Below, piece by piece: positions 28,523 through 48,147 of a DNA stretch of 64,000 nucleotides. The notes under the pieces were generated by a model. The model did not search any database. It was not told the DNA's origin and saw only the letters and a program-made list of their open reading frames with translations. The position numbers and the translations under genes are program-made. Position 1 is the first letter of the stretch; each line of letters opens with the position of its first letter. Source of the stretch: Candidatus Eiseniibacteriota bacterium (GTDB lineage Bacteria; Eisenbacteria; RBG-16-71-46; JABDJR01); assembly GCA_963728475.1 (NCBI GenBank), contig CAVSKL010000001.1, positions 714,523 to 778,522 of the forward strand. The letters are read 5' to 3'.

Positions 28523-29554
28523 AACGGTTGGACGGATGCGGAGTTCGGGGTCGGTTCCGGCGGCGCGGGCCTGGCGCGGGAGCGCGGCGTGTGCCCGGCG
28601 CGGCCGCCCCGGTTGCTGGACCGGTTGAGTTCGCTGATCCGGGCGCGGCACTACAGCCCCAGCACCGAGAAGGCCTACGTGGGCTGGGTGAGGCGGTTCG
28701 TGCTCTTTCACGGCAAGCGCCACCCGGACGCGATGGGCGAGGCGGAGGTGACCGCGTTCCTGTCGGACCTGGCGGCGCGGCGGAAGGTGAGCGCCTCGAC
28801 CCAGAACCAGGCCCTGAGCGCGATCCTGTTCCTGTACCGCGAGGTGCTGGGCCGCGACCTGGCCGGGGCGGACGGGATCGTCCGCGCCAAGCGCCCGGTG
28901 CGGGTCCCGGTGGTGCTGACCCGGGACGAGGTTTAGGCGATCCTGGGCCACATCCACGGGACGCCGTGGTTGATGGCGTCGCTCCTCTACGGGGCGGGGT
29001 TGCGGCTCATGGAGTGCTGCCGGCTCCGGGTCAAGGATGTGGACTTCGGCCGGGGCGAGATCCGGGTGCGCGACGGCAAAGGGCAGAAGGACCGGGTGAC
29101 GTTGTTGCCGCGCGCGGTCCGGGGCCCTTTGGCCGCCCACCTGGACCGGGTGCGGCGGATGCACCGGGACGACCTGCGGGCGGGCCGGGGCGGGGTGGAG
29201 CTGCCGAGGGCGCTGGCCCGTAAGTACACCGGGGCGTCGCGGGAGTGGGCCTGGCAGTGGGTGTTCCCGGCCACGCGGCCGTACGTCGATCAAGGGACCG
29301 GCGAGGAGCGCCGGCACCACCTGCACGAGTCGGTGGTGCAGCGGGCGGTGAAGGAGGCGGTGCGCCGGGCCGGGGTGCCCAAGCCGGCGACGTCGCATAG
29401 CTTGCGGCACTCCTTCGCCACCCATCTGCTGGAGGCGGGCTACGACATCCGGACCATCCAGGAGCTGTTGGGTCATAGCGACGTGAGCACGACCATGATC
29501 TACACGCACGTTCTCAACCGAGGCGGCCGCGGGGTGCGGAGCCCGCTGGATTGA
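28523..29554 (+). pseudogene. intI: Integron integrase intI (tyrosine recombinase with IntI-specific insertion), interrupted by an in-frame TAG at 28934-28936
   Basis: HYSPSTEKAYVGWVRRFVLFHGKRHP...[44 protein letters not shown]...[23 protein letters not shown]...[42 protein letters not shown]...GVRSPLD matches IntI1 blocks, including the IntI-only ALERKYP...WxWVF segment. The two ORFs 28241..28936 and 28970..29554 are in the same frame. The start is uncertain (TTG 28523, GTG 28589 or ATG 28343). Confidence 0.8.
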
Positions 29555-29590
29555 CCCGCCGGGCGACGTGAATAGGGACCCGGGTCCCAC

Positions 29591-29621
29591 CGGCCCGGGC
29601 CGGGCCGGGCCGGGCCGGGCC
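29591..29621. repeat. (GGGCC)6 pentanucleotide repeat immediately downstream of intI
   Basis: Seen directly. Confidence 0.8.
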
Positions 29622-29699
29622 GTTCGACTCTCGCACGGATCCAGGCAGGTTCGGTTCGGGCGCGATTCTTCCCGGCCCGGCCGTCGCACCGCCCCGCCT

Positions 29700-29917
29700 C
29701 GCTCGCTCGGCTATCTGGGCTATCCGCCCCCGAGGCTAACCGACATGTGTATCCGCCTATCCGGTGTCAACCCGCGGCCTATCCCGTCGCCCTCTCCGGC
29801 GCGATCTCGCGTATCATGGGGCGGGCTCGCGGGTTCGGCGCCGGCCACCGGCGGAGCTACACCGCCGCCAGCCACCACGGCCCGCGGCCTATTCCGGTCA
29901 GATACTTCCTGTTAGCC
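29700..29917 (+). other. Putative attI site with direct repeats and GTTAGCC crossover box
   Basis: About five GCTATCC/CCTATCC direct repeats, two of them in a 15-bp CCCGCGGCCTATYCC form (29773-29787 and 29882-29896). GTTAGCC at 29911-29917 lies 22 bp before the RBS (GGAGG) of the first cassette ORF. Confidence 0.5.
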
Positions 29918-29939
29918 CGAGCGTGGAAGGAGGCAAGAG

Positions 29940-30257
29940 ATGAAAGGCAGGGTAGTTGTTGCTAGCCTGCTTGCGTGCCCTTTGCTGTTGGGCTGTGGGA
30001 ACAACCCCGTGTCATCCTCTACATCTGCCGACATCGTCAATCACACGGGCACAGTGCGACAGATCGGCAGCGTCGGCTATGCCATCGACGATGACGCCGA
30101 GTCCAGTGAGCGATTCGCACCGAGCAACCTGCCTGACTCGTTCAAGAGGGACGGGGTAAGAGTCCTGTTCAGCGGCAGGAGAGGCGAGATACCTCCCAAC
30201 GTGCGCATGTGGGGAACGCCGCTGGAGTTGACGTCGATTCAGGCAGATATCCGCTAG
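29940..30257 (+). CDS. Cassette ORF: small lipoprotein (hypothetical)
   Basis: 105 aa with lipobox LLLGCG and a strong RBS. The stop lies just before the GGCTAAC of the following attC. Confidence 0.5.
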   Translation: MKGRVVVASLLACPLLLGCGNNPVSSSTSADIVNHTGTVRQIGSVGYAIDDDAESSERFAPSNLPDSFKRDGVRVLFSGRRGEIPPNVRMWGTPLELTSIQADIR

Positions 30258-30262
30258 CGCCG

Positions 30263-30364
30263 GGCTAACCGGCCGCTACAGCCGCCGCCCGCTCCTGGGG
30301 AGTAGGATAGGGCTTTGAAGGACGTCGGTCGTCGCGGGCGCGGCTGACCGGCAGCACGTTAGCC
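30263..30364 (+). other. attC recombination site (cassette 1)
   Basis: GGCTAAC...(imperfect stems CAGCCGCCGCCCGC/CGGGCGCGGCTG)...GTTAGCC. The ends are complementary and there are extrahelical mismatches in the stems. Confidence 0.6.
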
Positions 30365-30403
30365 CGATAGACTTCACAAACTGCTACCTTCTGTGGTAAC
30401 GTC

Positions 30404-30604
30404 TTGGTCATGGGGAAGATCCGCCGGGGGAACTACGTGTTCGTGTTCTGGACCGGGGATCACTCGCCCAGACATGTACACGTGTACCGCAATTCCCGAC
30501 TTGTAGTTAAGTGGGATCTGGATAGTGACTTAGAGATGCAAGGCAAAGCGACCCGCCAGATCAGGCGCCTCATTGCGGAGCTGAAAGCCGAGGGCAAGCT
30601 GTGA
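30404..30604 (+). CDS. DUF4160 family protein
   Basis: 66 aa, GNYVFVFWTGDHSPRHVHV motif. 4-bp overlap with the next ORF, the usual DUF4160/DUF2442 pair. Confidence 0.6.
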   Translation: MVMGKIRRGNYVFVFWTGDHSPRHVHVYRNSRLVVKWDLDSDLEMQGKATRQIRRLIAELKAEGKL

Positions 30605-31071
30605 AGATCACCCGAGTTACCGCAAACAACCGAAAGAAGGTCTTTGAAGTGGCCACGCGGAGTGGTCTGTTCCTTTTTCCCTACGTGGAGGCGGATCCTT
30701 CTCCTTCGCCTTCCGACCGCGTGCAAGAGGTCAGCCCAGACAAGGAGATTGCCCGGGAAGGCTTCACCTACACCCTTGAATCCGGTCGTGAAGGCACCGT
30801 CCACATCGATCACGTGCTCGAGTACAACCAGGACCCCAACTATCTCGCGGACATGCTCCTTTACAACCTGACGGTTGAAGCCCGGAAGCGGGTCGAGCAA
30901 TCCGAGCTAAGCACACGAGAGATCATTCGGAGGCTAGGGACTTCAGCCACCCAGTTCTACCGCCTCCTAGACCAGACGAACTACTCCAAGTCCCTGAAGC
31001 AGTTGGTGGCGTTACTGACCATCCTCGGCTGTGAGGTGGATCTGGTCGTTAGGCAGAAGCGCACTGCATGA
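30601..31071 (+). CDS. DUF2442-like protein with C-terminal HTH-like region
   Basis: 156 aa. Partner position to DUF4160. The TREIIRRLGTSATQFYRLL segment looks like an HTH. Confidence 0.45.
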   Translation: MKITRVTANNRKKVFEVATRSGLFLFPYVEADPSPSPSDRVQEVSPDKEIAREGFTYTLESGREGTVHIDHVLEYNQDPNYLADMLLYNLTVEARKRVEQSELSTREIIRRLGTSATQFYRLLDQTNYSKSLKQLVALLTILGCEVDLVVRQKRTA

Positions 31072-31078
31072 CAGTGCG

Positions 31079-31210
31079 GGCTAACATGGGGTTGAACCTG
31101 ACAAGCCAACCTGTCACGGGCTTGGCTGTGCGGTGCTTCGGCAGAATCCGGATGGCGGCGCGGGCCAAGCCCGCGCCAGCTTGCTTTGCAGGTTAACCTG
31201 ATCGTTGGCC
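31079..31210 (+). other. attC recombination site (long, about 132 bp; family A)
   Basis: GGCTAAC...GGTTGAACCTGACAAGCCAAC...GGCCAAGCCCGCGCC...TTGCAGGTTAACCTG...GTTGGCC. Near-identical in its ends to the attC at 35094-35226. Confidence 0.7.
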
Positions 31211-31545
31211 AGTAGGACGGTCCCTTTTCTCGCTCTTGTCTGGTGCTGACCTAGAAGCGGTTTGTTGGCCTTGGACGCTTTCACCTTCGGTTCGCCGGGG
31301 TCGCTTCGAGCGCGGCTGATCCACAGGCGCCCCGCAGGTGCTTTCCAGGGACCAGTTGCTCTAGAATACCGAGTCGCTGTCTCGTCGGATCGTCGGCCCT
31401 GCTCCGCTGAGACGCCGTGCCTGCCGCTGGGATGCTAACGGGCGCTTCGACACGATCCGGGCGGGCGGCTTCGTCCGCTCGGTTGCGGCGGTCGCTTCCT
31501 GTGGCTACGGTCGGCACCGAATGTGCCGGTCCTGCCATTGGCCTC

Positions 31546-31637
31546 AGCCCAACAGTGGCGGTGTAGCCGACGCCATTGGGGCGGCTCAGCCCGGTCGGCG
31601 GCTTTTCAACACGGCGCGGCTAACCGCCAGCGTTGGG
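31546..31637 (+). other. attC recombination site bounding an ORF-less cassette (31205-31631)
   Basis: GCCCAAC + GTGGCGGTGTAGCCGACGCC ... GGCGCGGCTAACCGCCAGC + GTTGGGC. The outer boxes are perfectly complementary and the inner stems match in 18 of 20 positions. Confidence 0.6.
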
Positions 31638-31666
31638 CACCGAACGACGGGTAGGGAGGTCTGCCC

Positions 31667-32475: not shown

Positions 32476-32562
32476 GCCCAACCCTTTGTTGCTGCGGACG
32501 GGCTGCCAGCGTCGTGCCAGTGTGACCGTCATCGTGGCCCGCCGCAGAACGACACGTTATGC
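32476..32562 (+). other. attC recombination site (short)
   Basis: GCCCAAC ... TTGTTGCTGCGGACGGGC / GCCCGCCGCAGAACGACAC ... GTTATGC. Confidence 0.5.
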
Positions 32563-32612
32563 CGCCCAGGCTGCCTGATGCTCGAGGTGGCGAGTTGATG
32601 GGAGGCTACCTG

Positions 32613-33719
32613 ATGAAGCCGATTCTATTGACCGCCGTGGCCCTTGCAGCGGCGGTAATCGGAACGATCACTGGGGAGAGCGCCCACTCGGTCTCATTGC
32701 GAGTCGTGCGGATCGGTGAGATGTCAGTGGATCGGGCCGCCCACCAAGCCACGCTCCTGGACAACGGCCAAGTTCTGATCACTGGCGGTTGTGCCGGGCG
32801 CGGCTGCGATCGCATCCTCGACTCGGTGGAGCTCTACGACCCTGAGGCCCGATCCTTTACGTCCGTAGCTCCGATGACGATCCCGCGAGCCAGCCACGCG
32901 GCGGTAGCCCTCCCGGATGGCCGGGTCCTCGTATCAGGCGGTTGGACGGGTCAGCGTGTGACCGCCAGTGCGGAAATCTACGATCCAAGGGCCGACCGCT
33001 GGACGGTGGTGGGGGACATGACGCAGGCACGGGCGAGCCATATCGCGGTGCCTCTGGGCAGCGGGAAGGTACTCATGGTGGGTGGCGGCGAGGGCGGGCT
33101 GGGTGATCTAGCGTCTGTAGAGGTGTTTGATCCCGCCACATCCCACTTCTCTGCTATGGGCAGGATGCGGACCAATCACTACCTGGCAACTCGGTTGACG
33201 GACGGTCGGGTTCTGATGACCGGAGGGCAGAACGCTCAAGGCGAGGTCCTGGCGTCGGCGGAGATCTTTGATCCCGTCACCGGCAAGTCAGAGCCCACGG
33301 GCAGCATGGCCGTGGCGCGTGTCAAGCATGCGGCGGCGCTACTTCCCGATGGAAGGGTCCTGATCATTGGTGGGTCCGACACCCGCGGTTACGCCGCGCG
33401 ATTTGCGAGCACAGAGATCTATGACCCTGCTACCGGCAAGTTCTCGCTCGGGCCTGACATGCAGTGGGGCCGTCACAAGATCCGTGACGCGGTCGCCGGA
33501 CTATCCTCCGGTGGTGTTGTCGTTGCGGGCGGCGCGTCTCGGCCGGAGCTGTACGATTCCGCCGAGAGCGTGTTCATTCCGGTCGAAGGCCAATTGAGCG
33601 GACCGCTGATGTTCGCAACCGCGACCCACCTCACTAGTGGAGAGGTGCTGGTCCTTGGCGGGTATGACGATCGCACGCAGTCGTCTGCCGGTGCTTGGCT
33701 GGTCGGGCCGCTGCGCTGA
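32613..33719 (+). CDS. Secreted Kelch-repeat beta-propeller protein
   Basis: Signal peptide MKPILLTAVALAAAVIG. Six or more repeats of RxxHxAxxLxDGRVLxxGG. Confidence 0.6.
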   Translation: MKPILLTAVALAAAVIGTITGESAHSVSLRVVRIGEMSVDRAAHQATLLDNGQVLITGGCAGRGCDRILDSVELYDPEARSFTSVAPMTIPRASHAAVALPDGRVLVSGGWTGQRVTASAEIYDPRADRWTVVGDMTQARASHIAVPLGSGKVLMVGGGEGGLGDLASVEVFDPATSHFSAMGRMRTNHYLATRLTDGRVLMTGGQNAQGEVLASAEIFDPVTGKSEPTGSMAVARVKHAAALLPDGRVLIIGGSDTRGYAARFASTEIYDPATGKFSLGPDMQWGRHKIRDAVAGLSSGGVVVAGGASRPELYDSAESVFIPVEGQLSGPLMFATATHLTSGEVLVLGGYDDRTQSSAGAWLVGPLR

Positions 33720-33768: not shown

Positions 33769-33835
33769 GGCATAACAGGCCGATGAAGCTGCCGATCGCC
33801 TGCGGCGCCCGCAGCTTATCGGCGGGGCGTTATCC
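33769..33835 (+). other. attC recombination site (short)
   Basis: GGCATAACAGGCCGATGAAGCTGCC ... GCAGCTTATCGGCGGGGCGTTATCC inverted repeat. Confidence 0.5.
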
Positions 33836-33902: not shown

Positions 33903-34313
33903 ATGAGCGAGCAGTTCACGAAGTACGAACGAATCTGGATCGACGGCTTGAATCGAGGCGATGTCTCTATTGTTGATGATGTCTTCGAGCCAAATTGCGT
34001 CATTCACATCGCGGGAAGCCCGGAGCCGAATCTCCCCGTAAGTGGTTTCAAACAGATGATGGCCGGCCTTCTTGCGGCGTTTCCGGACATTCAGCTGACG
34101 ATCGAGGATCAGGTCGTTACGGCGGACAAGGTAGCCACGCGGTGGACGGGCGCTGGCACTCATACTGGACCGCTCGGCGACATCAAGCCAACGGGGCGAC
34201 GAATACGGATCGGCGGTCTGATCCTCGACCACGTGTCTGGGGGGCGCGTGGTCGAGCGTTGGGAGCAGTGGGACCAAGCTGGCATGTTGCAGCAGCTAGG
34301 TGTGCTCGGGTAA
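33903..34313 (+). CDS. SnoaL-like / NTF2-like predicted ester cyclase
   Basis: 136 aa with the typical ERIWIDGLNRGD...VIHIAG...RWTGAGTHTGPLG pattern. Confidence 0.55.
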   Translation: MSEQFTKYERIWIDGLNRGDVSIVDDVFEPNCVIHIAGSPEPNLPVSGFKQMMAGLLAAFPDIQLTIEDQVVTADKVATRWTGAGTHTGPLGDIKPTGRRIRIGGLILDHVSGGRVVERWEQWDQAGMLQQLGVLG

Positions 34314-34465: not shown

Positions 34466-34497
34466 CTTGACTGAGAGTATAACCTAGGTTATACTCT
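34466..34497 (+). promoter_or_regulatory. Sigma70-like promoter (TTGACT-17-TATACT) overlapping a perfect 26-bp palindrome (GAGAGTATAACCTAGGTTATACTCTC): probable autoregulated TA operator, near-leaderless antitoxin mRNA
   Basis: Seen directly. The -10 box ends 9 bp before the antitoxin ATG at 34504. Confidence 0.45.
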
Positions 34498-34503
34498 CAT
34501 TTC

Positions 34504-34746
34504 ATGAAGACAGCCATCTCCATTCCAGACCCTCTTTTCAAGGCTGCAGAGCACCTTGCTAGGCGCCTTGGAGTCTCTCGAAGCGAGCTGTATCAGCTCG
34601 CCGTTTCCCGGCTCCTGGACGACCATGATGACGAGGCGACAACGGACGCTCTAAACAAGCTCTACGGAGAGCACCCCGAACTCGCCAAGGTTGATCCAGT
34701 GCTCGATCAACTCCAGCTTGCTGCCTTGCCTAAGGACGACTGGTAG
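34504..34746 (+). CDS. Type II antitoxin (RHH/MazE-like)
   Basis: 80 aa, MKTAISIPDPLFKAAEHLARRLGVSRSELYQLAV. 1-bp overlap with the toxin gene. Confidence 0.6.
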   Translation: MKTAISIPDPLFKAAEHLARRLGVSRSELYQLAVSRLLDDHDDEATTDALNKLYGEHPELAKVDPVLDQLQLAALPKDDW

Positions 34747-35099
34747 TGCTCCGCGGGGAAGTCTGGTGGGCCAATCCGCCTGTCCCCGGGGGATCCGAAC
34801 CGGGCTATCGCCGGCCCGTTCTCGTCGTCTCCTCGGACAACTACAACCGTAGCTCCATCGCCACGGTGGTGGTAGCGGCCATTACTTCGAATGAAATCCT
34901 CGCCGGCGCTCCCGGGAACGTACGGATAACCAAACGACAGAGCGGTCTGCCCAAGGCGTCGGTAGTAAACGTGTCACAGCTCCTCACGGTCAGCAAGGAT
35001 GCGCTCGTTGAGCACGCCGGTATTCTCTCCGATTCGGTCATGAGCAACGTCAGCGCTGGTTTGGTACGCGTGCTTGGATTGCCGAGCATCCGCGGCTAA
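34746..35099 (+). CDS. mazF: Type II toxin, MazF/PemK family endoribonuclease
   Basis: GEVWWANP...RPVLVVS...TVVVAAITS is the PemK/MazF signature. The TAA stop is embedded in the attC R'' box GGCTAAC. Confidence 0.7.
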   Translation: MLRGEVWWANPPVPGGSEPGYRRPVLVVSSDNYNRSSIATVVVAAITSNEILAGAPGNVRITKRQSGLPKASVVNVSQLLTVSKDALVEHAGILSDSVMSNVSAGLVRVLGLPSIRG

Positions 35100-35226
35100 C
35101 AGCAGGTTGAACCTGACAAGCCAAGCTGCCACGGTCTTGGCCGTAGGGTGCCTCGAATAGATCCGGCAAGTTTTCTCGGGCCAAGCCCGCGCCAAGTTGC
35201 CTTGCAAGTTATCCTGGGTGTTAGCC
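35094..35226 (+). other. attC recombination site (long; family A, paralogue of the site at 31079-31210)
   Basis: GGCTAAC...GGTTGAACCTGACAAGCCAAG...GGCCAAGCCCGCGCC...GTTAGCC. Confidence 0.7.
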
Positions 35227-35255: not shown

Positions 35256-36323
35256 ATGGTGAGGGAATACCGGACCATGAAGGCGGCGGTCTTCGTAGAG
35301 CCCGGCCGTATTGCTTTAGAAGACAGGCCTATTCCCGAGGTGGGGCCCCGCGACGCCCTACTTCGGGTAACGACCACGACGATCTGCGGAACTGACGTAC
35401 ACATCCTCAAGGGCGAGTATCCGGTTGCGCCAGGGCTGATCGTCGGTCATGAGCCCGTGGGCGTCATAGAGGAACTCGGCGCAGCGGTCTCGGGTTACAA
35501 GGTAGGTCAGCGCGTGATCGCGGGCGCCATCACTCCCTGCGGTCAGTGCTACCCGTGCCTCGGCGGGGACCAGGCTCAGTGCGGGGGCAGGGCCATGGGC
35601 GGCTGGCGGCTTGGCAACACCATCAACGGCTGTCAGGCCGAGTACGTCCTGATTCCCGATGCTACGGCAAACCTGGCGCCGATCCCCGACGGCCTGACCG
35701 ACGAGCAAGTGCTCATGTGCCCCGACATCATGAGCACCGGCTTTGGCGGCGCAGAAAGCGGCCGGATTAGGATCGGAGACACGGTCGCAGTGTTTGCGCA
35801 GGGGCCGATCGGGCTCTGCGCCACAGTGGGCGCGAGACTTTCCGGCGCGACCATGATCGTCGCCGTGGATGCCGTGCCCGAACGACTCGCCATGTCCAAG
35901 GCGCTGGGCGCTGACCTCACGATCAATTACAAGGAGCGCGATCCGTTCGAGGCGATACAAGAGGCCACGGGTGGGCGGGGCGTGGACGTGGCCATCGAGG
36001 CCCTCGGCACGCAGGCGACGTTCGAGAACTGCCTGCGCGTGCTGCGGCCGGGCGGCACGCTCTCGAGCCTGGGGGTCTACTCGGGTAAGCTCACGTTGCC
36101 CCTAGACGCCTTTGCCGCGGGGCTTGGCGATCACACAGTCGTGACGACGCTGTGTCCAGGCGGGAAAGAGCGGATGCGCAGGCTGATGAACGTCCTGGCT
36201 TCTAAGCGCGCCGACCTGCGACCGCTCGTGACCCACCGGTTCCCGCTCGACCGGATCGAGGACGCATACGACCTGTTTGCGAGCCAGCGTGATGCGGTGC
36301 TCAAGATCGCCATCACACCATGA
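35256..36323 (+). CDS. Zn-dependent alcohol dehydrogenase family oxidoreductase
   Basis: ICGTDVH, GHEPVG and the GxGxxG Rossmann motif (VFAQGPIGL). RBS AGGAGGA. Confidence 0.7.
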   Translation: MVREYRTMKAAVFVEPGRIALEDRPIPEVGPRDALLRVTTTTICGTDVHILKGEYPVAPGLIVGHEPVGVIEELGAAVSGYKVGQRVIAGAITPCGQCYPCLGGDQAQCGGRAMGGWRLGNTINGCQAEYVLIPDATANLAPIPDGLTDEQVLMCPDIMSTGFGGAESGRIRIGDTVAVFAQGPIGLCATVGARLSGATMIVAVDAVPERLAMSKALGADLTINYKERDPFEAIQEATGGRGVDVAIEALGTQATFENCLRVLRPGGTLSSLGVYSGKLTLPLDAFAAGLGDHTVVTTLCPGGKERMRRLMNVLASKRADLRPLVTHRFPLDRIEDAYDLFASQRDAVLKIAITP

Positions 36324-36376: not shown

Positions 36377-36440
36377 GGCTAACCACAGCATGCGTCTGCC
36401 GGCGCTTCGCGCCGCCCCTGATGCTGGGCATCAGACCCCG
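36377..36440 (+). other. attC-like site, short family B, apparently degenerate R' box
   Basis: GGCTAAC CACAGCATGCG ... CCGGCGCTTCGCGCCGCC ... CTGATGCTGGGCATC. Shares its core with the sites at 40626 and 41319. Confidence 0.4.
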
Positions 36441-37325: not shown

Positions 37326-37410
37326 TGTTGGCTCAGCGAGGTGTAGCAGCCGGTTCCCGCGGACGGTCCGCCGCGCGGCCCCTTCGCGGAACCGGGAACA
37401 TTGGCCTGCG
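37325..37410 (+). other. attC-like inverted repeat
   Basis: CAGCCGGTTCCCGCGG / CCGCGGAACCGGG stems, GTTGGCT ... ATTGGCC ends. Confidence 0.35.
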
Positions 37411-39248: not shown

Positions 39249-39324
39249 TTCACGACCGCTGCCGAACGTGACCGGGCCGCCCCTTCGGGGCCCAGAAGCC
39301 CATCGAAACCCGAAGGGAGATGAC

Positions 39325-40189: not shown

Positions 40190-40621
40190 TTGACAGACGA
40201 CAGATGGTCAGCGTCGCCAGTTCTCGGCGTCCGACAGGTGCGCCAAGCCGCCGAGTACTACCGCGACGTCCTTGGATTCAGTCTCGATCCGGTTGATGGC
40301 GTCTTTCAGCCTTCGCCGGACGAGCCTGACGGCGTCTACGCAGTAGTGAAGCGTCCGGGCGCATCGATCCACTTCCAAATACGTCGCGACCAAACTCAGC
40401 AACGGCAGCGACCGGCGTTTGAGCCCGACGCCTATGTGTATGTAAACGACGTGAACAGGCTGCATGCGGAGCTTAAGCGCCGTGGTGCGAAGTTCCAGGC
40501 GCCTCCGCGAATGGCGCCTCATGGGATTCGCGAGATGGTCGTCGAGGACTTGAACGGGTACCGGCTCGCGTTCGGCGAACTTCGGCCGGAGGCCAAGGGT
40601 GCAAACAGGCCGGGCGGCTGA
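40190..40621 (+). CDS. VOC family protein (glyoxalase/bleomycin-resistance fold)
   Basis: TTG start after AAGGAGGG. SPVLGVRQVRQAAEYYRDVLGF is the typical VOC N-terminal beta-alpha-beta motif. Confidence 0.55.
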   Translation: MTDDRWSASPVLGVRQVRQAAEYYRDVLGFSLDPVDGVFQPSPDEPDGVYAVVKRPGASIHFQIRRDQTQQRQRPAFEPDAYVYVNDVNRLHAELKRRGAKFQAPPRMAPHGIREMVVEDLNGYRLAFGELRPEAKGANRPGG

Positions 40622-40625
40622 TAGC

Positions 40626-40666
40626 GGCGTGCAACCCGCCGGCGCTTCGCGCCGCAGCTGGGTCGC
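40626..40666 (+). other. Degenerate attC-like remnant (family B core CCGGCGCTTCGCGCCGC)
   Basis: Shares an 18-bp core with the site at 36377. Confidence 0.3.
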
Positions 40667-40758
40667 CTCAGGACCGACCGGAAAGCGGCACCGCCTGGAC
40701 GCTACGCGAAAGGAGTGCGACGCCGCGCCAGATGCGGCGACGAAGGAGGACTGAACAC

Positions 40759-41097
40759 ATGTTCACCAAGAAGGGCGACGCGGCCGTCCTCGCCAAGCTC
40801 CGCGATGCCCCCGCCGAGTATCGGGAGATTGGAGAACGCCTGCATCGAATCATCCGGGAGAGCGTGCCGTCGCTCGAACCAATTGTACGATGGGGACTGT
40901 TCTTTTACGCTAAGGACGGCAAGGACATCTGCTACATCAAACTAGACAAGGATTTCATTGCATTCGGCTTCGGCGAAGTTGTGAACCCCGTTCGCGAGGT
41001 GGGCGCCAACATGCATCCGGTCGCGTGGACCCTGACCGCTCTGGACGCCGCAACGGAAGCCAGGATTAGTGCGCTCGTCAAGAAGGCCGTGGCCTGA
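40759..41097 (+). CDS. DUF1801-like small protein
   Basis: 112 aa. RBS GAAGGAGG. Confidence 0.35.
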   Translation: MFTKKGDAAVLAKLRDAPAEYREIGERLHRIIRESVPSLEPIVRWGLFFYAKDGKDICYIKLDKDFIAFGFGEVVNPVREVGANMHPVAWTLTALDAATEARISALVKKAVA

Positions 41098-41318: not shown

Positions 41319-41378
41319 GGCCAACAACAGCATGCGGCCGCCGGCGCAGCGCCCCGCCGCTGATGCTGAATGTTGGGC
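41319..41378 (+). other. attC recombination site (short, 60 bp, family B, canonical)
   Basis: GGCCAAC AACAGCATGCGG ... CTGATGCTGAAT GTTGGGC. R''/R' are perfectly complementary and L''/L' are complementary, immediately before an RBS and ATG. Confidence 0.65.
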
Positions 41379-41392
41379 GCCAGGGAGACATC

Positions 41393-41845
41393 ATGACGGT
41401 CAAGCGTATGGACAACGTCGGAATCGTGGTGGAAGACATCGATACCGCCATTGAGTTCTTCTCCGAACTTGGTCTCGACCTCGAGGGACGTGCCGCAGTT
41501 GAAGGAGACTGGGCGGATGGCGTCACCGGATTGCGCGACATGCGCGTCCCGATTGCGATGATGCGTACGCCGGACGGTCACGGCCGTCTGGAGTTGTCCC
41601 GCTTCCTCGCGCCGCCAGTGGTAGCGGATCACCGCGTTGCCCCAGTGAACGCTCTCGGCTACCTACGCGTCATGTTTACCGTGGAGGACATCGACGATAC
41701 GCTCGCACGGCTCACCAAACGCGGCGCGACGCTCGCCGGCGACGTGGTCCAGTACGGGGACACGTATCGGCTCTGCTACATCCGGGGTCCCGAAGGAATC
41801 CTCATCGGGCTTGCCCAAGAGCTCGGGCAAGAGACTTCCCGATGA
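41393..41845 (+). CDS. VOC family protein (glyoxalase I-like)
   Basis: MTVKRMDNVGIVVEDIDTAIEFFSELG is the canonical VOC start. Confidence 0.65.
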   Translation: MTVKRMDNVGIVVEDIDTAIEFFSELGLDLEGRAAVEGDWADGVTGLRDMRVPIAMMRTPDGHGRLELSRFLAPPVVADHRVAPVNALGYLRVMFTVEDIDDTLARLTKRGATLAGDVVQYGDTYRLCYIRGPEGILIGLAQELGQETSR

Positions 41846-42264
41846 ACAGCTTCGTCTCCTACCAGACCCTTATCGACCTGTGTCTCCGGGAATGTGCGGC
41901 GTCTGGACGCAAGTTGGCGATGAATTGGAACTCTGAGTCCCCCCAAGTCCCGTCGTGCATCTTGGCCACGGAAGCGGCACTCGACTTGATCGAGCACGCT
42001 GCAACGCAGCGGTGGTCGACTCGTTCATTTTGTTACATTACATTAGGGAACGACGCCTCCGTCAGGGTCGCCCTCACTGCTGGTATGTCGTTTTCAGGTG
42101 CGGGCATGGCCAGGCCGGGCGCCATGGCGGGGGTTGCTGACTCAGGCACGTCTGCTGTTGCCGTGCGGGTGAAGGAAGCGAATGGTTCGCTGCGCGCGCC
42201 CGTCGCAGTTACTCTGGCGCGTCCGCAGCCGGACGCTGCGGCGTCGGGGCCTCCTTTCCCATGA
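41842..42264 (+). CDS. Hypothetical protein
   Basis: ATGA overlaps at both ends (coupled to VOC and TspO). Low-GC 5' half. Confidence 0.3.
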   Translation: MNSFVSYQTLIDLCLRECAASGRKLAMNWNSESPQVPSCILATEAALDLIEHAATQRWSTRSFCYITLGNDASVRVALTAGMSFSGAGMARPGAMAGVADSGTSAVAVRVKEANGSLRAPVAVTLARPQPDAAASGPPFP

Positions 42265-42749
42265 CGCCGCGCTCCCTGCCATCGCAGTGGGTCGGCTTGC
42301 TCGGCTGGTTGCTGGTGGCGTTCGCCGCCGCCGCGGTCGGAGCAATCGGCTCCGTTGATGCTGCATCCTTCTATGCCGAGTTGAGCAAGCCATCGTGGGC
42401 TCCCCCAGGATGGGTGTTCGGCCCTGTATGGTCGACGCTGTATTCGCTCATGGGAGTCTCCGCGTGGTTGGTTTGGCGATCTGCAGGCTCCAAGAAGCTC
42501 GCCTTGACCTTGTTCGGCGCGCAGCTTGCGGCGAATGCGCTTTGGTCCTGGTTGTTTTTCGCCTGGCATCGGGGAGCGCTTGCCGCAGTGGAGGTTCTCA
42601 TTCTGCTGGCGCTCATCGTGTGCGCGACCGCCGCGTTCTGGCGCAGCAGCCGCGTGGCCGCGGCGCTGTTGGTCCCGTACTTGTTGTGGGTGAGCTTCGC
42701 ATCGTTGCTCACATGGTCGGTGTGGCAACGCAACCCGAGGCTTCTGTGA
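42261..42749 (+). CDS. tspO: TspO/MBR family tryptophan-rich sensory protein
   Basis: 162 aa with 5 TM segments and Trp-rich motifs (WAPPGWVFGPVWSTLY, LWSWLFF). Confidence 0.7.
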   Translation: MTPRSLPSQWVGLLGWLLVAFAAAAVGAIGSVDAASFYAELSKPSWAPPGWVFGPVWSTLYSLMGVSAWLVWRSAGSKKLALTLFGAQLAANALWSWLFFAWHRGALAAVEVLILLALIVCATAAFWRSSRVAAALLVPYLLWVSFASLLTWSVWQRNPRLL

Positions 42750-43043
42750 GGTGCGCTTTGGCCGCCCCCCCTATCCTCCCCGCCCTACCTAGCGGGGACG
42801 CACCGGTCGGAGCTCGTGCTCGTCGCGAACGCTGCACGCCACAACACATTCCAGGGCGCAGGTTCCTTCATGACTGAAGACATCTCTCTGCGGGACGTGG
42901 TCGAGTGGCTATTCCGACGAAGGCGCCCACCTGGTCCGAAGGAAGGCGCCCACCCGTTCCGAGCGAAGACGCCCGCCGGTTCCGAAGGATTCCGGCCACC
43001 GTCGGAGCGTAGCGACGCGGGGATTGTGTCGTTGGGTTCCTCG

Positions 43044-43982
43044 TCAGGGTCGTGGGTCGCATCTTACCGGGTCGGTCCCGGGTTGGTAGCCTGATTTTCC
43101 GGTCTCGGGTCCAGGCACCGGGATCCGACCTCGAGAGAAGCTCCAGGAGCGACGATCTCGGCCCGGCCGGGACCTGGGGTACCCCCCCCGGATCACGGGG
43201 TTCTGGATTGGGGTCTTCTTCTTCTTCTTCTTCTTCTTCTCCGTGGCCGGGGTCAGGGGTTCGGTCTGGCGCATCGAGGCTCCTTTGAGCGGGATGCGGT
43301 GCGAGCGGTGCAGGAGCCGGTCCACGATCCCGTCGGCCAGGGTGGGTTCCCCGATCGCCTCGTGCCAGGCGGTGATGGGCAGCTGGGAGGCGATGAGGGT
43401 GGAGGCCCGCTCGTGGCGATCCTCCAGGACCTCGAGCAGGTCGCGCCGCTCGGCGTCGCGCAGCGGAGCCACGAGCCAGTCGTCGATGGCCAGCAGCTCC
43501 ACCTTGAGGAGCCGGGCCAGGAGCCGTTCGTAGGAGCCATCGCCGCGGGCGACGGCGAGTTCGTGAAGGATCCGGGGAGTCCGGACATAGGTGGCGGTGA
43601 ACCCGCGCCGGCAAGCCCGCTCCGCGAACGCGCAGGCGAGGAAGCTCTTGCCGGTGCCGGTGGGTCCGGTCAGCACGAGGTTCTGGTGCTCCTGGATCCA
43701 GCCGCAGGTGCCGAGGGAGAGGACGACCTGGCGGTCGAGCCCCCGGGAGGCGCGGAAGTCGACGTCCTCGAGACAGGCCGGGTAGCGGAGCTTGGCTCCC
43801 TTGAGCCGGCGGGCGAGCTTGCGCTGTTCGCGGTGGGTCCACTCGGCGTCGACCAGGAGGCCGAGGCGCTCGTCGAAGCTCAGGCCGGCGGCCTGGCGGG
43901 AGGCGGTCTGCTGCTCGAAGGCCTCGATCATGGCCGAGAGCTTCATGGCCTGCATCTTGTCCAGGGTGGCTTGGTTCAGCAT
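43044..43982 (-). CDS. istB: IS21-family transposition helper ATPase IstB (no stop at the expected C-terminus, reads through a (GAA)8 tract)
   Basis: Walker A (GPTGTGKS) and the IstB C-terminal IVDRLLHRSHRIPLKGASMR. The expected end is about 43250. The ORF continues to 43044. Confidence 0.75.
   Translation of the reverse strand: MLNQATLDKMQAMKLSAMIEAFEQQTASRQAAGLSFDERLGLLVDAEWTHREQRKLARRLKGAKLRYPACLEDVDFRASRGLDRQVVLSLGTCGWIQEHQNLVLTGPTGTGKSFLACAFAERACRRGFTATYVRTPRILHELAVARGDGSYERLLARLLKVELLAIDDWLVAPLRDAERRDLLEVLEDRHERASTLIASQLPITAWHEAIGEPTLADGIVDRLLHRSHRIPLKGASMRQTEPLTPATEKKKKKKKKTPIQNPVIRGGYPRSRPGRDRRSWSFSRGRIPVPGPETGKSGYQPGTDPVRCDPRP
43218..43241. repeat. (TTC)8 / (GAA)8 trinucleotide microsatellite
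   Basis: Seen directly. Encodes the K8 run in the istB read-through. Confidence 0.85.
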
Positions 43983-45538
43983 GGGATCTCCTTTGGGGCG
44001 GCGTAGTAGGCGGCGCCGCGGATGTTCTCGTGGGAGGGTGCGGCCGGGGCGGGCGACTCGGTCTCCAGCGGGAGCCGGTCGGTTCCGGCGGAGAGGATGT
44101 TCTTGACGGTGCGGTAGCTGTAGGAACGCAGGTGGAGCGCCCGCCGGGAGGCGGCTTCGAGACGCGCCTCACCGTACTTCTTGCCCAGGCGCATGAGGCC
44201 GAGACAGGAGCGGTAGCCCTGCTCGGGGTGGGGCCGGGTGTCGAGGATGTGGGTCACAAGTTCGGCGGCGTGGGGGCCGGTCTTCTCGGCCCAGCGAACG
44301 AGCCGGGAGGGGGTCCACTCGAGGTGGGCCCGGTGGGAGGCGGGCATGTGGTCGCGGTGAGTGGAGTGGCGTCCCCGGCCGCGTAGCCGCCGATGGGAGG
44401 CGACGCGCTTGGAGTGGAAGATGATCTCGACGGTGGTGGCGGTGGTCCGTGCCTCCACCACTTCCTTCAGGAGCTGGTAGGGGACGCTGTAGTAGTTGTT
44501 CTCGACCTCGACGTGGTAGTCGATGTTGACTCGGGGGTAGCTCCAGATGCCCTTCTCGTAGCGGCCGAGGGGGAGGGGCCGCAGGGCGGGGCGATCGAGT
44601 GCTTCGAAGAGCTGGCGGCGGCTCACCTTGAGCTTCTGCATAGGACGGTCGTTGAGGCGGTCGAGCTCGTCGCGGATGGCGGCGTTGAGCTCTTCGAGCG
44701 AGAAGAAGGTGCGGTTGCGGAGCACGGCGAGGATCCAGCGCTGGGCGAGCAGCACGGACAACTCGACCTTCGCCTTATCCTTGGGGCGCCGGACCCGGGC
44801 GGGGATGACCACCGCGCCGTAGTGGGCGGCGAGTTCCTCGTAGGTCCGGTTCACCCCCGGCTCGTAGCGACAGGGGGTGGTGATCCCGCTCTTCAGATTG
44901 TCCGGGACCCAGATCGCCGTGGAACCGCCGAGGTAGGCCGCCATGTTCTGGTGGGCGGTGATCCAGGAGTCCAGATCCTGGCTGGGGGTGGCCTCGGCGT
45001 AGACGTAGCCGCTGGCCCCCAGGGCGGCCACGAACAGCTCGACCTCGGTCACCTCCCCCGTCTTCGGATCCACGATGGCGGGCCTATTGCCCGAGAAGTC
45101 CACGAAGGTCTTCTCGCCGGCCACATGGACCTGGCGCATCGAGGGGGAGAGCTTCCCGGCGAAGCGGTGGTAGAGGTCACAGAAGCGGCTGTACTGGTAC
45201 CCGTCCCGCGGATGACCGGCCCGGTACTCCTGCCACAGCAACGAGAGCGTGACCCCGGGACGGCGCAGCTCCTGGTGGACCCACGCCCAGTCGGGCCGGG
45301 GCCGCCCTCGCTCCGGGAAGGGGTGGGCGGCGGGGAACAGGAGCTGCTCCAGGTCCGTCTCGCTCCGGTCCTCGGCCACCGGCCAGGCCAGCCCGGCCCG
45401 CTGGGCCCGGGCCAGGTACTCTCGGACCGTGGTCCGCCCCAGCCCCAGGCTGCGGGCGATCTGGCGGTGGCTGAGTCCGGCGGCGCGAAGCCGCAGCACA
45501 TCTTGGATCTTGCGCATGGGTAACCTCTTAGCTGGCAC
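43976..45538 (-). CDS. istA: IS21-family transposase IstA
   Basis: 520 aa with an N-terminal HTH (LSHRQIARSLGLGRTTV) and an IS21 DDE core. Overlaps the istB start. Confidence 0.75.
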   Translation of the reverse strand: MPAKRLPMRKIQDVLRLRAAGLSHRQIARSLGLGRTTVREYLARAQRAGLAWPVAEDRSETDLEQLLFPAAHPFPERGRPRPDWAWVHQELRRPGVTLSLLWQEYRAGHPRDGYQYSRFCDLYHRFAGKLSPSMRQVHVAGEKTFVDFSGNRPAIVDPKTGEVTEVELFVAALGASGYVYAEATPSQDLDSWITAHQNMAAYLGGSTAIWVPDNLKSGITTPCRYEPGVNRTYEELAAHYGAVVIPARVRRPKDKAKVELSVLLAQRWILAVLRNRTFFSLEELNAAIRDELDRLNDRPMQKLKVSRRQLFEALDRPALRPLPLGRYEKGIWSYPRVNIDYHVEVENNYYSVPYQLLKEVVEARTTATTVEIIFHSKRVASHRRLRGRGRHSTHRDHMPASHRAHLEWTPSRLVRWAEKTGPHAAELVTHILDTRPHPEQGYRSCLGLMRLGKKYGEARLEAASRRALHLRSYSYRTVKNILSAGTDRLPLETESPAPAAPSHENIRGAAYYAAPKEIPC

Positions 45539-46258
45539 GCGGGGTCCTCCTCTGGGATGAGAGAAAGGCTCAGCGTAGCCCGGTTACCCCGCGCCGCCAC
45601 CCCCGAACCGGGGTGGGCGGCTTCGTTCGGAACGGTGGGCGCCTTCCCTCGGAACGGTGGGCGCCTTCCCTCGGAACGGTGGCCGGCTTCGCTCGGAATC
45701 AGCGGGCGCGATCAGTCGGAAGGGTGGGCGTCTTCGCTCGGAATCGGGGGGCGGAATCGCTCGGAATAGTCAACCTGATTCCGCTCAAGGACTCCTTCAG
45801 GGTGTCGATGGCGATCAGGGAGTCGGAGCGCTCGGCGCTACTTGGGGCTGGCCACATGGCAAACTACGGAAGCCTGCTCGCTTCCGCCCGCAAGTTCGCG
45901 GAGGGGTTCTCGGTGGTCTTCGATGTCACAACGCACTCCTCCTACGATCACTGCAGCCGCTTCGTTTCCTGGATCATTGCGGCGCGCCGCTAGCTGCTTG
46001 GAGGACTTTGCGGCCCCCCCCGCCTCGCCCTTGAGCGGTGAGGACGCCAGAGACACACGCCCGACCCGGGACTCTTGCTTTCCGAACCCCGGCACGGCGG
46101 GCGGTGGCGCCAGGGAACCGGAAGATGAAGGCGGCAGACTTGGTAGAGCCTGCCCGTATCGCCTTGGGCGCGTTGCCGCGGGACGCATGGCTGGCGGAGG
46201 GCATCCTGGAACTCGTATGCACCATCGGCGGTCCTGGCGGTGGAGAGAGGAGAGTACG

Positions 46259-46603
46259 ATGAGTAGCGAACATTTGCCGCCCGAGACGAGAGGGGTCACG
46301 GTGAAGCTGCTGGCAACGGTCGACCTTGGCCCTGAGATCGAGGGCATGGCCGGGCGCCGGCTTCGAATGCGGATGGTGACCATCGATCCCGGCGGGGTTT
46401 TCGGCCCGGTTCACGACCACAAGGGCAGACCGGGCATCGTCTACATCCTGCAAGGAACGATCACCGACCATCAAAACGGAGCCGCTACCGACTATGGGCC
46501 GGGGGTGGGCTGGCCCGAGGACAGGAACACGACCCACTGGCTCGAGAACCGGGGACAGGTTCCGGCGGTGGAGATCTCGGTCGATATAGTCGGGCATGAT
46601 TAG
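46259..46603 (+). CDS. Cupin domain protein
   Basis: 114 aa. RBS GAGAGGAG. G(X)5HxH-like FGPVHDHKG cupin motif. Confidence 0.5.
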   Translation: MSSEHLPPETRGVTVKLLATVDLGPEIEGMAGRRLRMRMVTIDPGGVFGPVHDHKGRPGIVYILQGTITDHQNGAATDYGPGVGWPEDRNTTHWLENRGQVPAVEISVDIVGHD

Positions 46604-46897
46604 GCTCAGGCTGGCTATCAGAACCGGCCGAGGCCGGCGTGCGGCCGATTTGGCCGCCCGCCCGCCGGACTTCACCTTCCTATCGCGCGACGGTCAGAGA
46701 CACTGGACGCCGCGCACCACCAGCTTCTTCGGCCATCTCGGCCCGAAGAAGGTGAAATGGCTGGTCACGAGAAAGGTGGATCTGTAACCGAAGCGCCGCG
46801 CGCTCTTGATAGACTTGGGATGCGGTCCGACTCTCCCTTGGCCGCCGCTTCCTGCGGCAGATGCATTTTCCGTCGGGCGCCCCACACCGGAGGTCAC

Positions 46898-47266
46898 ATG
46901 ACGCTCAGCCGTCTTGTCCCCATGCAGCCGGTCACCAGCATGCCGGCCAGCGTGAACTTCTACCAGAAGCTCGGCTTCGTTGTTGAAGACCGAAATGAGA
47001 AATGGGGTTGGGCCATGCTGCGTTGCGGCAGCTGCCAGATCATGCTCGACCAGTCCATCAATCTTCACCCCGGTGTCCCCAGAACCTCGGTTCTCTACCT
47101 CTATCCGGAGGACCTGGTTGACTTTCACCGTCGTGCCCGGGACAACGGACTCCCCGTTCCCGAACTGGAGGTCACGTTCTACGGCATGAACGGGTTTCGT
47201 GTGGAGGACCCGGACGGCAATCCATTGTGGATCGGCCAAGCAGTGGGGACGCCGGAACATGCCTGA
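46898..47266 (+). CDS. VOC family protein (bleomycin-resistance/glyoxalase-like)
   Basis: 122 aa. Typical NFYQKLGF start and a C-terminal FRVEDPDGN motif. Confidence 0.55.
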   Translation: MTLSRLVPMQPVTSMPASVNFYQKLGFVVEDRNEKWGWAMLRCGSCQIMLDQSINLHPGVPRTSVLYLYPEDLVDFHRRARDNGLPVPELEVTFYGMNGFRVEDPDGNPLWIGQAVGTPEHA

Positions 47267-47367
47267 CAACTTCTGCGAGGCTCCGCCTCGCGCCGTGGGT
47301 GACCGGGGCCGCGGCCAACGCGATCGATAGAGAGGGTAGCCCGCAGCCGGACAGCGGGAGGAGCGAG

Positions 47368-47787
47368 GCGATGGCATCCGTCGACGACCCGGGCTCGCAA
47401 CGCTTCTACCATGGGACGAAGGCCGACCTCAGGCCGGGGGACCTGATCGGGCCCGGCTATGGTTCCAACTACGGCAAGAGGAAGCGGGCGGCCTACGTCT
47501 ATCTGACCGCCACCTTGGACGCGGCCGCATGGGGGGCCGAGCTGGCCCTCGGTGAAGGACCAGGCAGAATCTACATCTCGGAGCCGACCGGCCCGATAGA
47601 AGATGATCCCAATCTGACGGACAAGAAGTACCCGGGCAATCCGACGAAATCGTACCGCTCCCGCGACCCGCTTCGGATCACGGGCGAGATCACGGATTGG
47701 CGGGGGCACTTCTCCGAAGAGCTCAAAGCCATGAAGGACAACCGGGAGCGACTCAAGCGTCTTGGAATTGAGGCGATCGAGGACTGA
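47368..47787 (+). CDS. arr: Arr-family NAD+--rifampin ADP-ribosyltransferase
   Basis: 139 aa. FYHGTKADLRPGDLI, AAWGAELA, YISEPTGPIEDDPNLTDKKYPGNPTKSYRSRDPLRITGEITDWRGH and RLKRLGIEAIED match recalled Arr-2/Arr-ms blocks almost position for position. Confidence 0.75.
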   Translation, partial: AMASVDDPGSQRFYHGTKADLRPGDLIGPGYGSNYGKRKRAAYVYLTATLDAAAWGAELALGEGPGRIYISEPTGPIEDDPNLTDKKYPGNPTKSYRSRDPLRITGEITDWRGHFSEELKAMKDNRERLKRLGIEAIED

Positions 47788-48147
47788 GGAGCGGCCGGGT
47801 ACCTAGAGTCAATCCCGGCGACCGACCTTCGTCGAACTTGAGCATGTCGCCGGTCGCCTTGCCGGCAAAGCCGGGAGTCTCGTGCTCCAGCGGACAGGGG
47901 TCCTCGAGGACGGGCAGGCGAAGGAATCGTACGCCGAGATTCCGGGATCCGGCACGGGGGAGCTGGACGGTCTCGCCGGGCATGGGGAGTCCGCAGTCGA
48001 GCATGGGATGGAGCATCCGTTCTCGCCCGACTACGACTTACCGTAGCCCACGAGTGGCGTCCGCCCCGGAACCTCGTTTTGCGAACTCGGCTGAATGCGG
48101 GTCAGCGCGAAGAGGCGTTTGACGAGGTGTTCCGCCCCTGGCGAGGG

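Follow-up and report, generated by a model that had tools for sequence, protein, structure and literature searches.

A probable, partly decayed chromosomal integron of the inverted-integrase type in a high-GC bacterium close to Candidatus Eisenbacteria

Organisation of the locus

The window analysed here, a stretch of 64 kb from contig CAVSKL010000001.1, has a GC content of about 70-75%, which goes down to about 62% at 30-42 kb and stays under the level of the flanks until about 48 kb (62-64% for the whole island, 69-75% for the flanks). At the left edge of this low-GC island lies a gene for an integron integrase (intI) on the forward (+) strand; downstream of it, on the same strand, come a candidate attI site and gene cassettes ending in attC recombination sites. 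The locus is very probably a sedentary chromosomal integron of the 'inverted integrase' type that is partly decayed and belongs to a high-GC host near Candidatus Eisenbacteria. On the + strand, its proposed layout would lead from intI over a spacer of about 150 bp to attI and the array, which would reach 41378 and be followed by a low-GC tail (41379-47790) split by an IS21 element. The features at the proximal end are:

28604-29554, +, intI, integron integrase (conserved region); TIGR02249, PF13495 and PF00589
28934-28936, +, in-frame TAG stop within intI, from translation and sequence
29590-29622, no strand, (CCGGG)x6.6 tandem repeat in the GC-rich spacer between intI and attI
29700-29917, +, candidate attI with repeated TATCC motifs; core CAGATACTTCCT followed by GTTAGCC, putative crossover between G29911 and T29912

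The integron integrase gene

The intI reading frame consists of two pieces in the same frame (28241-28936 and 28970-29554, both +) that are split by the TAG codon, and its start codon lies upstream of 28604, between about 28343 and 28603. When the two pieces are joined across the TAG, they match NCBIfam TIGR02249 ('integron integrase') with 463.6 bits at a cut-off of 265, covering profile positions 1-313 of 315. PF13495 lies in the first piece, PF00589 in the second. For the same protein, the XerC model reaches 159.6 bits (cut-off 335) and the XerD model 145.3 bits (cut-off 330), both below cut-off. When aligned with IntI1 and close homologues, the protein retains the catalytic R, K, HxxR, H and Y and has the IntI-specific insert, with WAWQWVF opposite WPWFWVF of IntI1. 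The identity amounts to 56% with IntI1 and to 80-84% with the intact IntI of Candidatus Eisenbacteria metagenome-assembled genomes (MAGs), and thousands of database homologues lie above 70% identity.

A first, sequence-only reading of this DNA had described an unmistakable intI and had named a grouping of the protein with XerC/D, for lack of the IntI-specific domain, as evidence that would speak against it. Its identity as IntI is upheld by the TIGR02249 score, the insert and the catalytic residues. The in-frame TAG was overlooked in that reading, and the frame is not intact. At the position of the TAG, the homologues P0001, P0003 and P0009 carry Gln; a single change from CAG to TAG is therefore indicated. 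No in-frame stop occurs in any of the 80 related intI regions, which are the nearest intI loci from a genome scan and the basis of all counts of related loci given here; two of these loci, L001 (CAVYIE010000006.1) and L002 (CAVPCR010000001.1), both from Candidatus Eisenbacteria MAGs and with IntI 80-82% identical to that of the window, recur below. As sequenced, intI is a pseudogene that is cut off after the N-terminal domain. The presence of one nonsense codon in a gene that is otherwise intact and still beside the candidate attI suggests that the inactivation is very recent, or that there is none at all.

attC sites of the array

For the detection of attC sites, two detectors were used. The first is a strand-specific grammar consisting of an R'' box ending in AAC, a spacer of 4-6 nt, an L box of 3 bp plus one bulge in the 5' arm plus 5 bp, a second spacer of 4-7 nt and an R' box beginning with GTT. 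When validated on 11 class-1 attC from plasmid records, it recognised 10 of them on the top strand and none on the bottom strand. In the island, it yielded six matches on the + strand (five distinct, four of them intergenic after open reading frames, ORFs) and none on the reverse (-) strand, whereas in first-order Markov simulations of the island the mean was 0.475 matches and the maximum 3. The second detector is the covariance model R2 (70 positions, 18 pairs), which was built from 61 attC of other genomes and 6 class-1 sites, none of them from the window; because its 61 training sites were selected by the grammar, grammar and R2 are not independent. R2 was run over the whole window with filters off, and its E-values are rough, the calibration having been shortened. 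Eight sites reached E <= 0.003; they are confined to the + strand between 30263 and 41378, and each comes after an ORF. The - strand and the rest of the 64 kb gave no significant match. These eight sites and two marginal ones are:

30263-30364, +, attC 1; R2 27.3 bits, E 3.7e-4; R'' GGCTAAC, R' GTTAGCC; bottom-strand hairpin z = -3.3
31079-31210, +, attC 2; R2 41.8 bits, E 1.8e-7; also matched by the grammar; z = -4.6; 85% identity to an attC of L001
31547-31638, +, attC 3; R2 37.5 bits; also matched by the grammar; z = -4.1
32476-32562, +, attC 4; R2 37.1 bits; also matched by the grammar; z = -1.0
33770-33835, +, attC 5; R2 32.4 bits; model R1 (see below) 29.2 bits; also matched by the grammar
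35094-35226, +, attC 6; R2 23.3 bits, E 0.003; z = -5.7; paralogue of attC 2
38969-39068, +, attC 7; R2 31.6 bits, E 3.8e-5; z = -1.7
41319-41378, +, attC 8, the last detectable site; R2 37.2 bits; R1 30.5 bits; 86% identity to an attC of L001
36377-36436, +, degenerate attC, marginal; R2 10.4 bits; E 2.7 for the window, 0.51 for the array
39806-39866 (R2 match 39806-39859), +, partial attC, marginal; 15.5 bits; E 0.19 for the window, 0.035 for the array

The first attC lies 709 bp past the intI stop, and the sites are spaced at 0.3-3.7 kb, bar one gap. Folding of the bottom strands as DNA gave the expected attC hairpin in six of the eight sites (z -2.0 to -5.7); in these, the R box is paired, there is an internal loop, and single-base bulges sit on the 3' arm of the L stem. 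In attC 3, the extrahelical bases on the bottom-strand 3' arm are T and C. Across all eight sites, 93% of the cells are paired and 10 of 18 pairs show changes on both sides, compared to 21-43% pairing in slid controls, in an alignment that was fitted to R2, a fit that favours the structure. Four attC of the window are 77-86% identical to attC in the array of L001. The stop codon of the MazF gene described below falls within the R'' box GGCTAAC of attC 6.

Not all sites are well preserved. In attC 7, the core triplets are mutated in a complementary fashion, from AAC to GAC in R'' and from GTT to GTG in R', by which the pairing of the R box is kept and the universal crossover sequence is, judging from these boxes, lost. 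The degenerate site at 36377-36436 has an intact R'' (GGCTAAC) and ATCAGAC as R' where GTTRRRY is expected. In the partial site at 39806, the L boxes and R' (GTTGAGT) are present and R'' is not recognisable.

The attC sites postulated in the sequence-only reading are thus recovered in part, as eight significant + strand sites found by a model from other genomes. Other proposed palindromes, candidates for degenerate attC at 34309-34403/34445, 37326-37410, 39150-39248, 40622-40700, 42747-42806, 46618-46682 and 47262-47330, fold without attC architecture and were rejected. In a shuffle test, six of these eight degenerate candidates were no better than their shuffles (z -0.3 to -1.1); those at 39150-39248 (z -2.4) and 46618-46682 (z -2.1) were.

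There is next to no likelihood that the locus is not an integron, with a XerC/D-like or phage-type tyrosine recombinase lying near unrelated palindromes such as repetitive extragenic palindromic (REP)-like elements or terminators. Chance palindromes are abundant in high-GC genomes and R''/R'-like pairs occur throughout the window, but the attC matches are limited to the low-GC island, to one strand and to ORF ends, and they show compensatory pairing as well as similarity to attC of other integrons. The integron-integrase score, the XerC/D scores far under their cut-offs of 330-335 bits and the IntI insert speak against this explanation from the side of the protein.

Other approaches were given up. 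The combination of R''/R' heptamer pairing and folding energy is unspecific in DNA with 72% GC and gave matches throughout the window. Model R1, derived from 'mini' attC without a centre, recovered only the two shortest sites and was superseded by R2 with its full-length sites. A model A1 from the 11 class-1 attC alone was not built, these sites being too few and too alike and the long ones misaligned. An Rfam scan of the window had zero matches, which is uninformative about attC. A weak attC-model match at 13033-13230 (15.6 bits, E 0.18) lies outside the island in DNA of host-like composition and is probably due to chance.

Polarity of the array

Because the core sites are near-palindromic, the polarity of the array was read from the extrahelical bases. 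The strand that is recombined is the one whose extrahelical bases lie opposite the AAC triplet (Nivina 2016, PMC5027507). The bulges of every attC in the window sit on that arm of the + strand which carries AAC. This makes the + strand the attC top strand, the same strand as that of intI and the cassette ORFs. With all attC on the + strand and 3' of a + strand intI, the co-orientation of intI and array proposed in the first reading is confirmed.

R''/R' core sites alone give no orientation, and it might be argued that a canonical integron was misread, either as the array of a lost integrase at the right end or because the top strand is really the - strand. This is highly improbable, since the strand-specific detectors match the + strand only and the extrahelical bases share the arm with AAC on that strand. 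Furthermore, each ORF precedes its attC on the + strand, the conserved attI core is located at the intI-proximal end, the right end is without an integrase, and the closest relatives have the same layout. A reversed polarity was also considered on account of the bulged G of the + strand and rejected; the arm that bears the bulge decides, and the class-1 attC of VIM-2 and dfrA17 likewise have a top-strand G.

The identity of the bulged L-box base was recorded as well. On the top strand, it is C in 62 of 81 unique attC from relatives with canonical orientation, and G in 22, T in 11, C in 8 and A in 2 of 43 unique sites from co-oriented relatives; in the window, seven of eight attC have G. For canonical integrons, the literature describes the extrahelical base of the L box as 'usually a G' on the recombined bottom strand. 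It is a tentative and rather doubtful proposal that in the inverted-integrase clade, including the window, this bottom-strand base would be C or A instead of G, with the distal extrahelical T being kept. If true, this would point to a clade-specific, co-evolved difference in the way IntI reads attC, possibly in strand selection. The trend is clear from the numbers of this sample, but host taxonomy is a confounder, and a top-strand G is also present in the VIM-2 and dfrA17 cassettes; a limited literature search found no paper stating a difference in the L-box base between the orientations.

The candidate attI site

A core with the sequence CA(G/C)ATACT-N4-GTT is conserved in the window, L001 and L002, about 300-360 bp past the intI stop. 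A block TATCCG-N2-TA and repeated TATCC motifs are likewise conserved among the three spacers, as found by reading and by MAFFT alignment, and the similarity stops at GTT. In the window, the core ends at GTTAGCC (29911-29917), 28 bp ahead of the first cassette ORF. From this conservation we infer that 29700-29917 is a candidate attI with its crossover at 29911/29912. A blastn search of the spacer between intI and attI against L001 and L002 gave no match. A candidate attI core common to three genomes is a concrete substrate for recombination tests in a little-studied clade.

The spacer between intI and the candidate attI comprises about 150 bp, and the spacer in which a promoter might sit 354 bp. 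The (CCGGG) repeat starts 36 bp past the intI stop in this spacer of 73% GC; L001 and L002 carry a G8 run right after the stop instead.

Co-orientation among related integrons

The best two loci of the genome scan belong to Candidatus Eisenbacteria MAGs with IntI identities of 82% and 80%, followed by Acidobacteriota, Krumholzibacteriia and others. When R2 was applied to the 80 loci, it gave 242 matches, and arrays were detectable in 43 loci. In 16 of these 43, including all closest relatives, the array is co-oriented, lying 3' of intI on the same strand. The hosts of the co-oriented arrays are Eisenbacteria, five Acidobacteriota lineages, Coriobacteriia, Nitrospiraceae, Nannocystaceae and one unclassified bacterium. 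Arrays on the opposite strand and 5' of intI were found in about 27 loci, mostly from Proteobacteria, and the grammar gave the same two orientation patterns as R2. In a neighbour-joining tree of the 80 relatives and IntI1, the window stands beside L001 and L002 in one clade with all 16 co-oriented loci, and nearly all canonical loci are in the other clade; the tree is rough, based on BLOSUM62 distances and without support values.

The classic example of the inverted-integrase layout is Treponema denticola, and the group is said to have been named by Boucher et al. in 2007. The name 'inverted integrase group' is in use in a further paper (PMC3575428), and the inverted integrase is listed as one of two known integron structures (PMC13323075). 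The group extends beyond Treponema and is paraphyletic in a wider sample (Cury 2016, PMC4889954), and it has been placed inside the soil/freshwater IntI clade (Ghaly 2021, PMC8352920). Since related loci and literature already show this layout, co-orientation is the rule for this lineage and no surprise. The view of the first reading that it is rare and mainly reported in spirochaetes is not tenable in the light of the published group and of the 16 co-oriented loci among 43, and co-orientation of intI and cassettes outside Proteobacteria should not count as unusual. The locus adds a well-resolved inverted-integrase example from Candidatus Eisenbacteria-like bacteria to a type that was already described.

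In L011 and L050, both from Blastocatellia MAGs, attC matches flank intI on either side, or occupy both strands 5' of it. These loci may contain two arrays or a rearranged integron.

Chromosomal setting

The flanks of the window consist of housekeeping-type chromosomal genes (malic enzyme/PTA, MprF-like, GGDEF). Immediately 5' of intI, a NusG/KOW-like gene is encoded at 27460-28374, with weak matches to PF02357 and PF00467. The junction between the NusG-like gene and intI is common to the window and L002, and the upstream neighbourhood of L001 differs. With flanks of the housekeeping type and a locus that is shared with L002, the setting appears chromosomal. Integrons have been defined as sedentary when they occur in all genomes of a species or contain >19 attC (Cury 2016, PMC4889954). 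As to these features, 8-10 attC are present here, the NusG-like-to-intI junction is shared with L002, and the upstream context in L001 is a different one.

The NusG/KOW-like gene has a long low-complexity N-terminus and may, by its sequence, code for a specialised NusG paralogue. Its counterpart in L002 (9054-9566, 47% identity) is likewise located directly 5' of intI. In L001, the block corresponding to 13.9-19.1 kb of the window is inverted.

Proposed mechanism and probable decay of the platform

According to the established integron mechanism, IntI would bind the folded bottom (-) strands of attC. Strand exchange would take place between AA and C of the R box, and the product would be resolved by replication. 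Recombination of attC with attI would lead to insertion of a cassette beside attI, recombination of two attC to excision. Because intI points into the array, the cassettes would be transcribed either from the intI promoter, by read-through, or from a promoter within the intI-attI spacer. Two toxin-antitoxin-like cassettes would probably have their own promoters and stabilise the array, which is the role that such cassettes usually have in sedentary arrays.

Several points weigh against the interpretation as a partly decayed inverted-integrase integron. The proposed route of cassette expression has no consensus promoter around attI to go with it; a scan for sigma-70 promoters and intrinsic terminators around intI and attI (promoter scan 28000-30400) found nothing, though the sigma-70 consensus may not fit this phylum. 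The support for attI is conservation among three genomes. The attC model R2 is home-made with a shortened calibration and is not IntegronFinder's own model. The stop codon is one base in one assembly, for which an error or a minority variant is possible. The tail at 41.4-47.8 kb is cassette-like in composition but without attC, and its first gene, the VOC gene at 41363, might be a neighbouring gene rather than a cassette, given a homologue 5' of intI in L001 (see below).

As sequenced, the platform is decaying, with a nonsense codon in intI, an attC without the AAC/GTT core, two marginal remnants and an IS21 insertion. Owing to the nonsense codon and the decay, cassette movement would require an intact IntI in trans. 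It is possible, though clearly the less likely case, that the same integron is fully functional, the TAG at 28934-28936 having arisen as an error of sequencing or assembly or belonging to a minority allele. The gene is otherwise perfectly conserved, with no frameshifts and with all catalytic and IntI-specific residues, the TAG is one C to T change away from the Gln codon of the closest relatives, and most of the proximal attC are well preserved; as the relatives are all MAGs, the window is probably a metagenome assembly, too. Nevertheless, the TAG is present in the sequence as given and is accompanied by further decay in the same element, namely the attC with the mutated core, the remnant attC and IS21, and intI pseudogenes beside arrays are documented (Cury 2016, PMC4889954). 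A second, independent copy of the stop region was not found by exact look-ups of the C-terminal fragment or by a pattern scan of JGI metagenomes.

Comparison with known integron types

With the inverted-integrase group, the locus shares an intI on the strand of the attC top strands and ORFs, a candidate attI and an array 3' of intI, an apparently chromosomal setting and an IntI from a clade whose detectable arrays are all co-oriented. It differs from the classic example by its Eisenbacteria-like host with about 72% GC, which is not a spirochaete, and by the intI nonsense codon, the short and partly decayed array and the IS21 element in the island. L001 and L002 have the same co-oriented layout, with 8 and 16 attC downstream, and the attI core; attC families are shared with L001 and the NusG-like gene with L002. 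In contrast to the window, their intI genes are intact, their cassette content is almost wholly different, and a truncated VOC homologue is located upstream in L001.

The features common to the window and canonical sedentary integrons, such as the superintegron of Vibrio cholerae and the proteobacterial loci L019-L039, are R''/R' boxes with AAC/GTT, an unpaired spacer of 5-6 nt, extrahelical bases in the L box and a variable loop. Both also have a cargo that is mostly uncharacterised, cassettes of the toxin-antitoxin kind and families of attC that recur within an array. In canonical integrons, however, intI is divergent from the array, and the top-strand L-box bulge is mostly C, whereas it is mostly G in the window. 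Class 1 mobile integrons (Tn402/Tn21-type) are similar with regard to the IntI family and the attC grammar, and arr is a known class-1 cassette. In contrast to them, the locus lies in a chromosomal context and is without a Tn402 backbone or 3' conserved segment, intI has the opposite orientation, and the Arr gene is not bounded by attC.

If the TAG is real, the window is formally an attC cluster beside an intI pseudogene and resembles those clusters of attC sites lacking integron integrases (CALIN) that have an intI pseudogene nearby. Such pseudogenes were found near 15 of 279 CALIN (Cury 2016, PMC4889954). What sets the window apart is that its pseudogene has a single nonsense codon, is otherwise intact and is still beside the candidate attI. 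An integron caught decaying by an intI nonsense codon, a mutated attC, remnants and an IS21 element bears on the origin of CALIN.

Cassette cargo

Up to the last detectable attC, the following genes and cassettes are present:

29940-30257, +, cassette 1, ORF of 105 aa; no family match
30404-31071, +, cassette 2, overlapping pair of a DUF4160 gene (30404-30604) and a helix-turn-helix (HTH) gene (30601-31071); toxin-antitoxin-like by domain search
31205-31632, +, cassette ended by attC 3; no + strand ORF of at least 60 aa
31667-32470, +, cassette 4, S-adenosylmethionine (SAM)-dependent methyltransferase; PF08241 3e-23
32559-33719, +, cassette 5, Kelch-repeat protein; PF01344 9e-42
33903-34313, +, SnoaL-like gene; domain search
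34504-35099, +, ribbon-helix-helix (RHH) antitoxin (34504-34746) and MazF toxin (34746-35099); domain search
35277-36323, +, gene of the Zn-dependent alcohol dehydrogenase family; domain search
36459-37325, +, second SnoaL-like protein; PF07366 4.6e-20
38179-38928, +, second methyltransferase cassette; domain search
39268-39765, +, DUF3237 protein; domain search
39861-40178, +, ORF without family match; domain search
about 40190-40621, +, VOC/glyoxalase gene; domain search
40732-41097, +, DUF1801 gene; domain search

For both methyltransferases, related cassettes were found in other integrons. The one in cassette 4 is 55% identical to a cassette in L005, and the second has 80% identity to a cassette in L079, which is itself followed by an attC. 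Between the SnoaL-like gene and the RHH/MazF pair, no attC was detected; the palindrome at 34309-34403/34445 folds no better than shuffles. A perfect palindrome of 28 bp (TGAGAGTATAACCT/AGGTTATACTCTCA, 34472-34499, 33% GC) is located 5 bp 5' of the RHH antitoxin gene and, by sequence, looks like an operator for autoregulation of RHH/MazF.

Two stretches are without convincing genes. The cassette at 31205-31632 contains an 85-aa ORF on the - strand, and about 850 bp between the second SnoaL-like gene and the second methyltransferase gene (37326-38178) have no convincing ORF. Both stretches could be non-coding or decayed cassettes.

Distal tail and IS21 element

Distal to the last attC, the island continues with the following features:

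41363-41845, +, VOC gene; domain search; no attC after it
41842-42264, +, weak GNAT-like ORF; domain search
42261-42749, +, TspO; domain search
42906-45772, -, IS21-family element of about 2.9 kb; PF01695 1e-70, Mu-transposase C-terminal and rve domains
46259-46603, +, cupin; domain search
46757-47266, +, second VOC gene of the tail; domain search
47371-47787, +, Arr rifampin ADP-ribosyltransferase; NF033144 212 bits, cut-off 130

The sequence-only reading had extended the array to 47790 with at least 14 cassettes. Cassette-sized + strand ORFs alternate with attC, but only the eight significant and two marginal attC were detected and none beyond. An array that does reach about 47790, with distal attC too divergent for R2, is an option that we consider unlikely. 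The cupin-VOC-Arr stretch has a GC content of 63.9% and the VOC-GNAT-TspO stretch one of 63.3%, and in the tail as a whole both GC (63-64%) and GC at third codon positions (GC3, 0.69-0.79) are as in the proximal cassettes, compared to a GC3 of 0.85-0.93 in host genes. The tail genes are also small, on the + strand and from typical cassette families (VOC, cupin, Arr, TspO), R''-like heptamers follow some of their stop codons (ATCAGAAC at 46620, GACAAC at 47264), and the sensitivity of the published attC model is only 61-88% (Cury 2016, PMC4889954). However, R2 with filters off found nothing better than E = 0.41 over the 7.8 kb from 41379 to 49200, and the candidate palindromes of the tail have no R' GTT partner and are mostly no better than shuffles. 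Moreover, the frames of the VOC, GNAT-like and TspO genes overlap without any spacer, and the arrays of the 80 related loci contain no homologue of any tail gene.

The cargo list of the first reading is right at the level of domains, though for TspO, Arr, the cupin and two of the three VOC genes no bounding attC was detected. These genes may be decayed cassettes or adjacent genes of the island. The presence of Arr and typical cassette genes in an attC-less tail offers a context in which resistance cassettes might be recruited or lost.

The IS21 element, which divides the attC-less low-GC tail in two, had been overlooked within the claimed array. It contains istA (43976-45538) and istB (43044-43982), both on the - strand, and its GC content is 69.2%. 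The terminal repeats of 22-23 bp are present in 3-4 copies at the left end and in 7 copies at the right end; a target-site duplication was looked for and none was recognised. As judged from the adjoining sequence, a small ORF (42870-42905 and 45775-45993) may have been split by the element.

At 9278-9527 of L001, an internally deleted homologue of the VOC gene at 41363-41845 is located directly 5' of intI on the same strand. Going by this placement, the surroundings of the integron seem to have been rearranged between the two genomes. Arr, at the end of the low-GC island, has 77% identity to arr from a Nostoc plasmid and about 60% to arr on a Salmonella plasmid. TspO has an exact match on an independent Logan contig of 1.4 kb (L090, run ERR11718636), which has the same order of GNAT-like gene and TspO, and a further exact match on a contig of >1 Mb.

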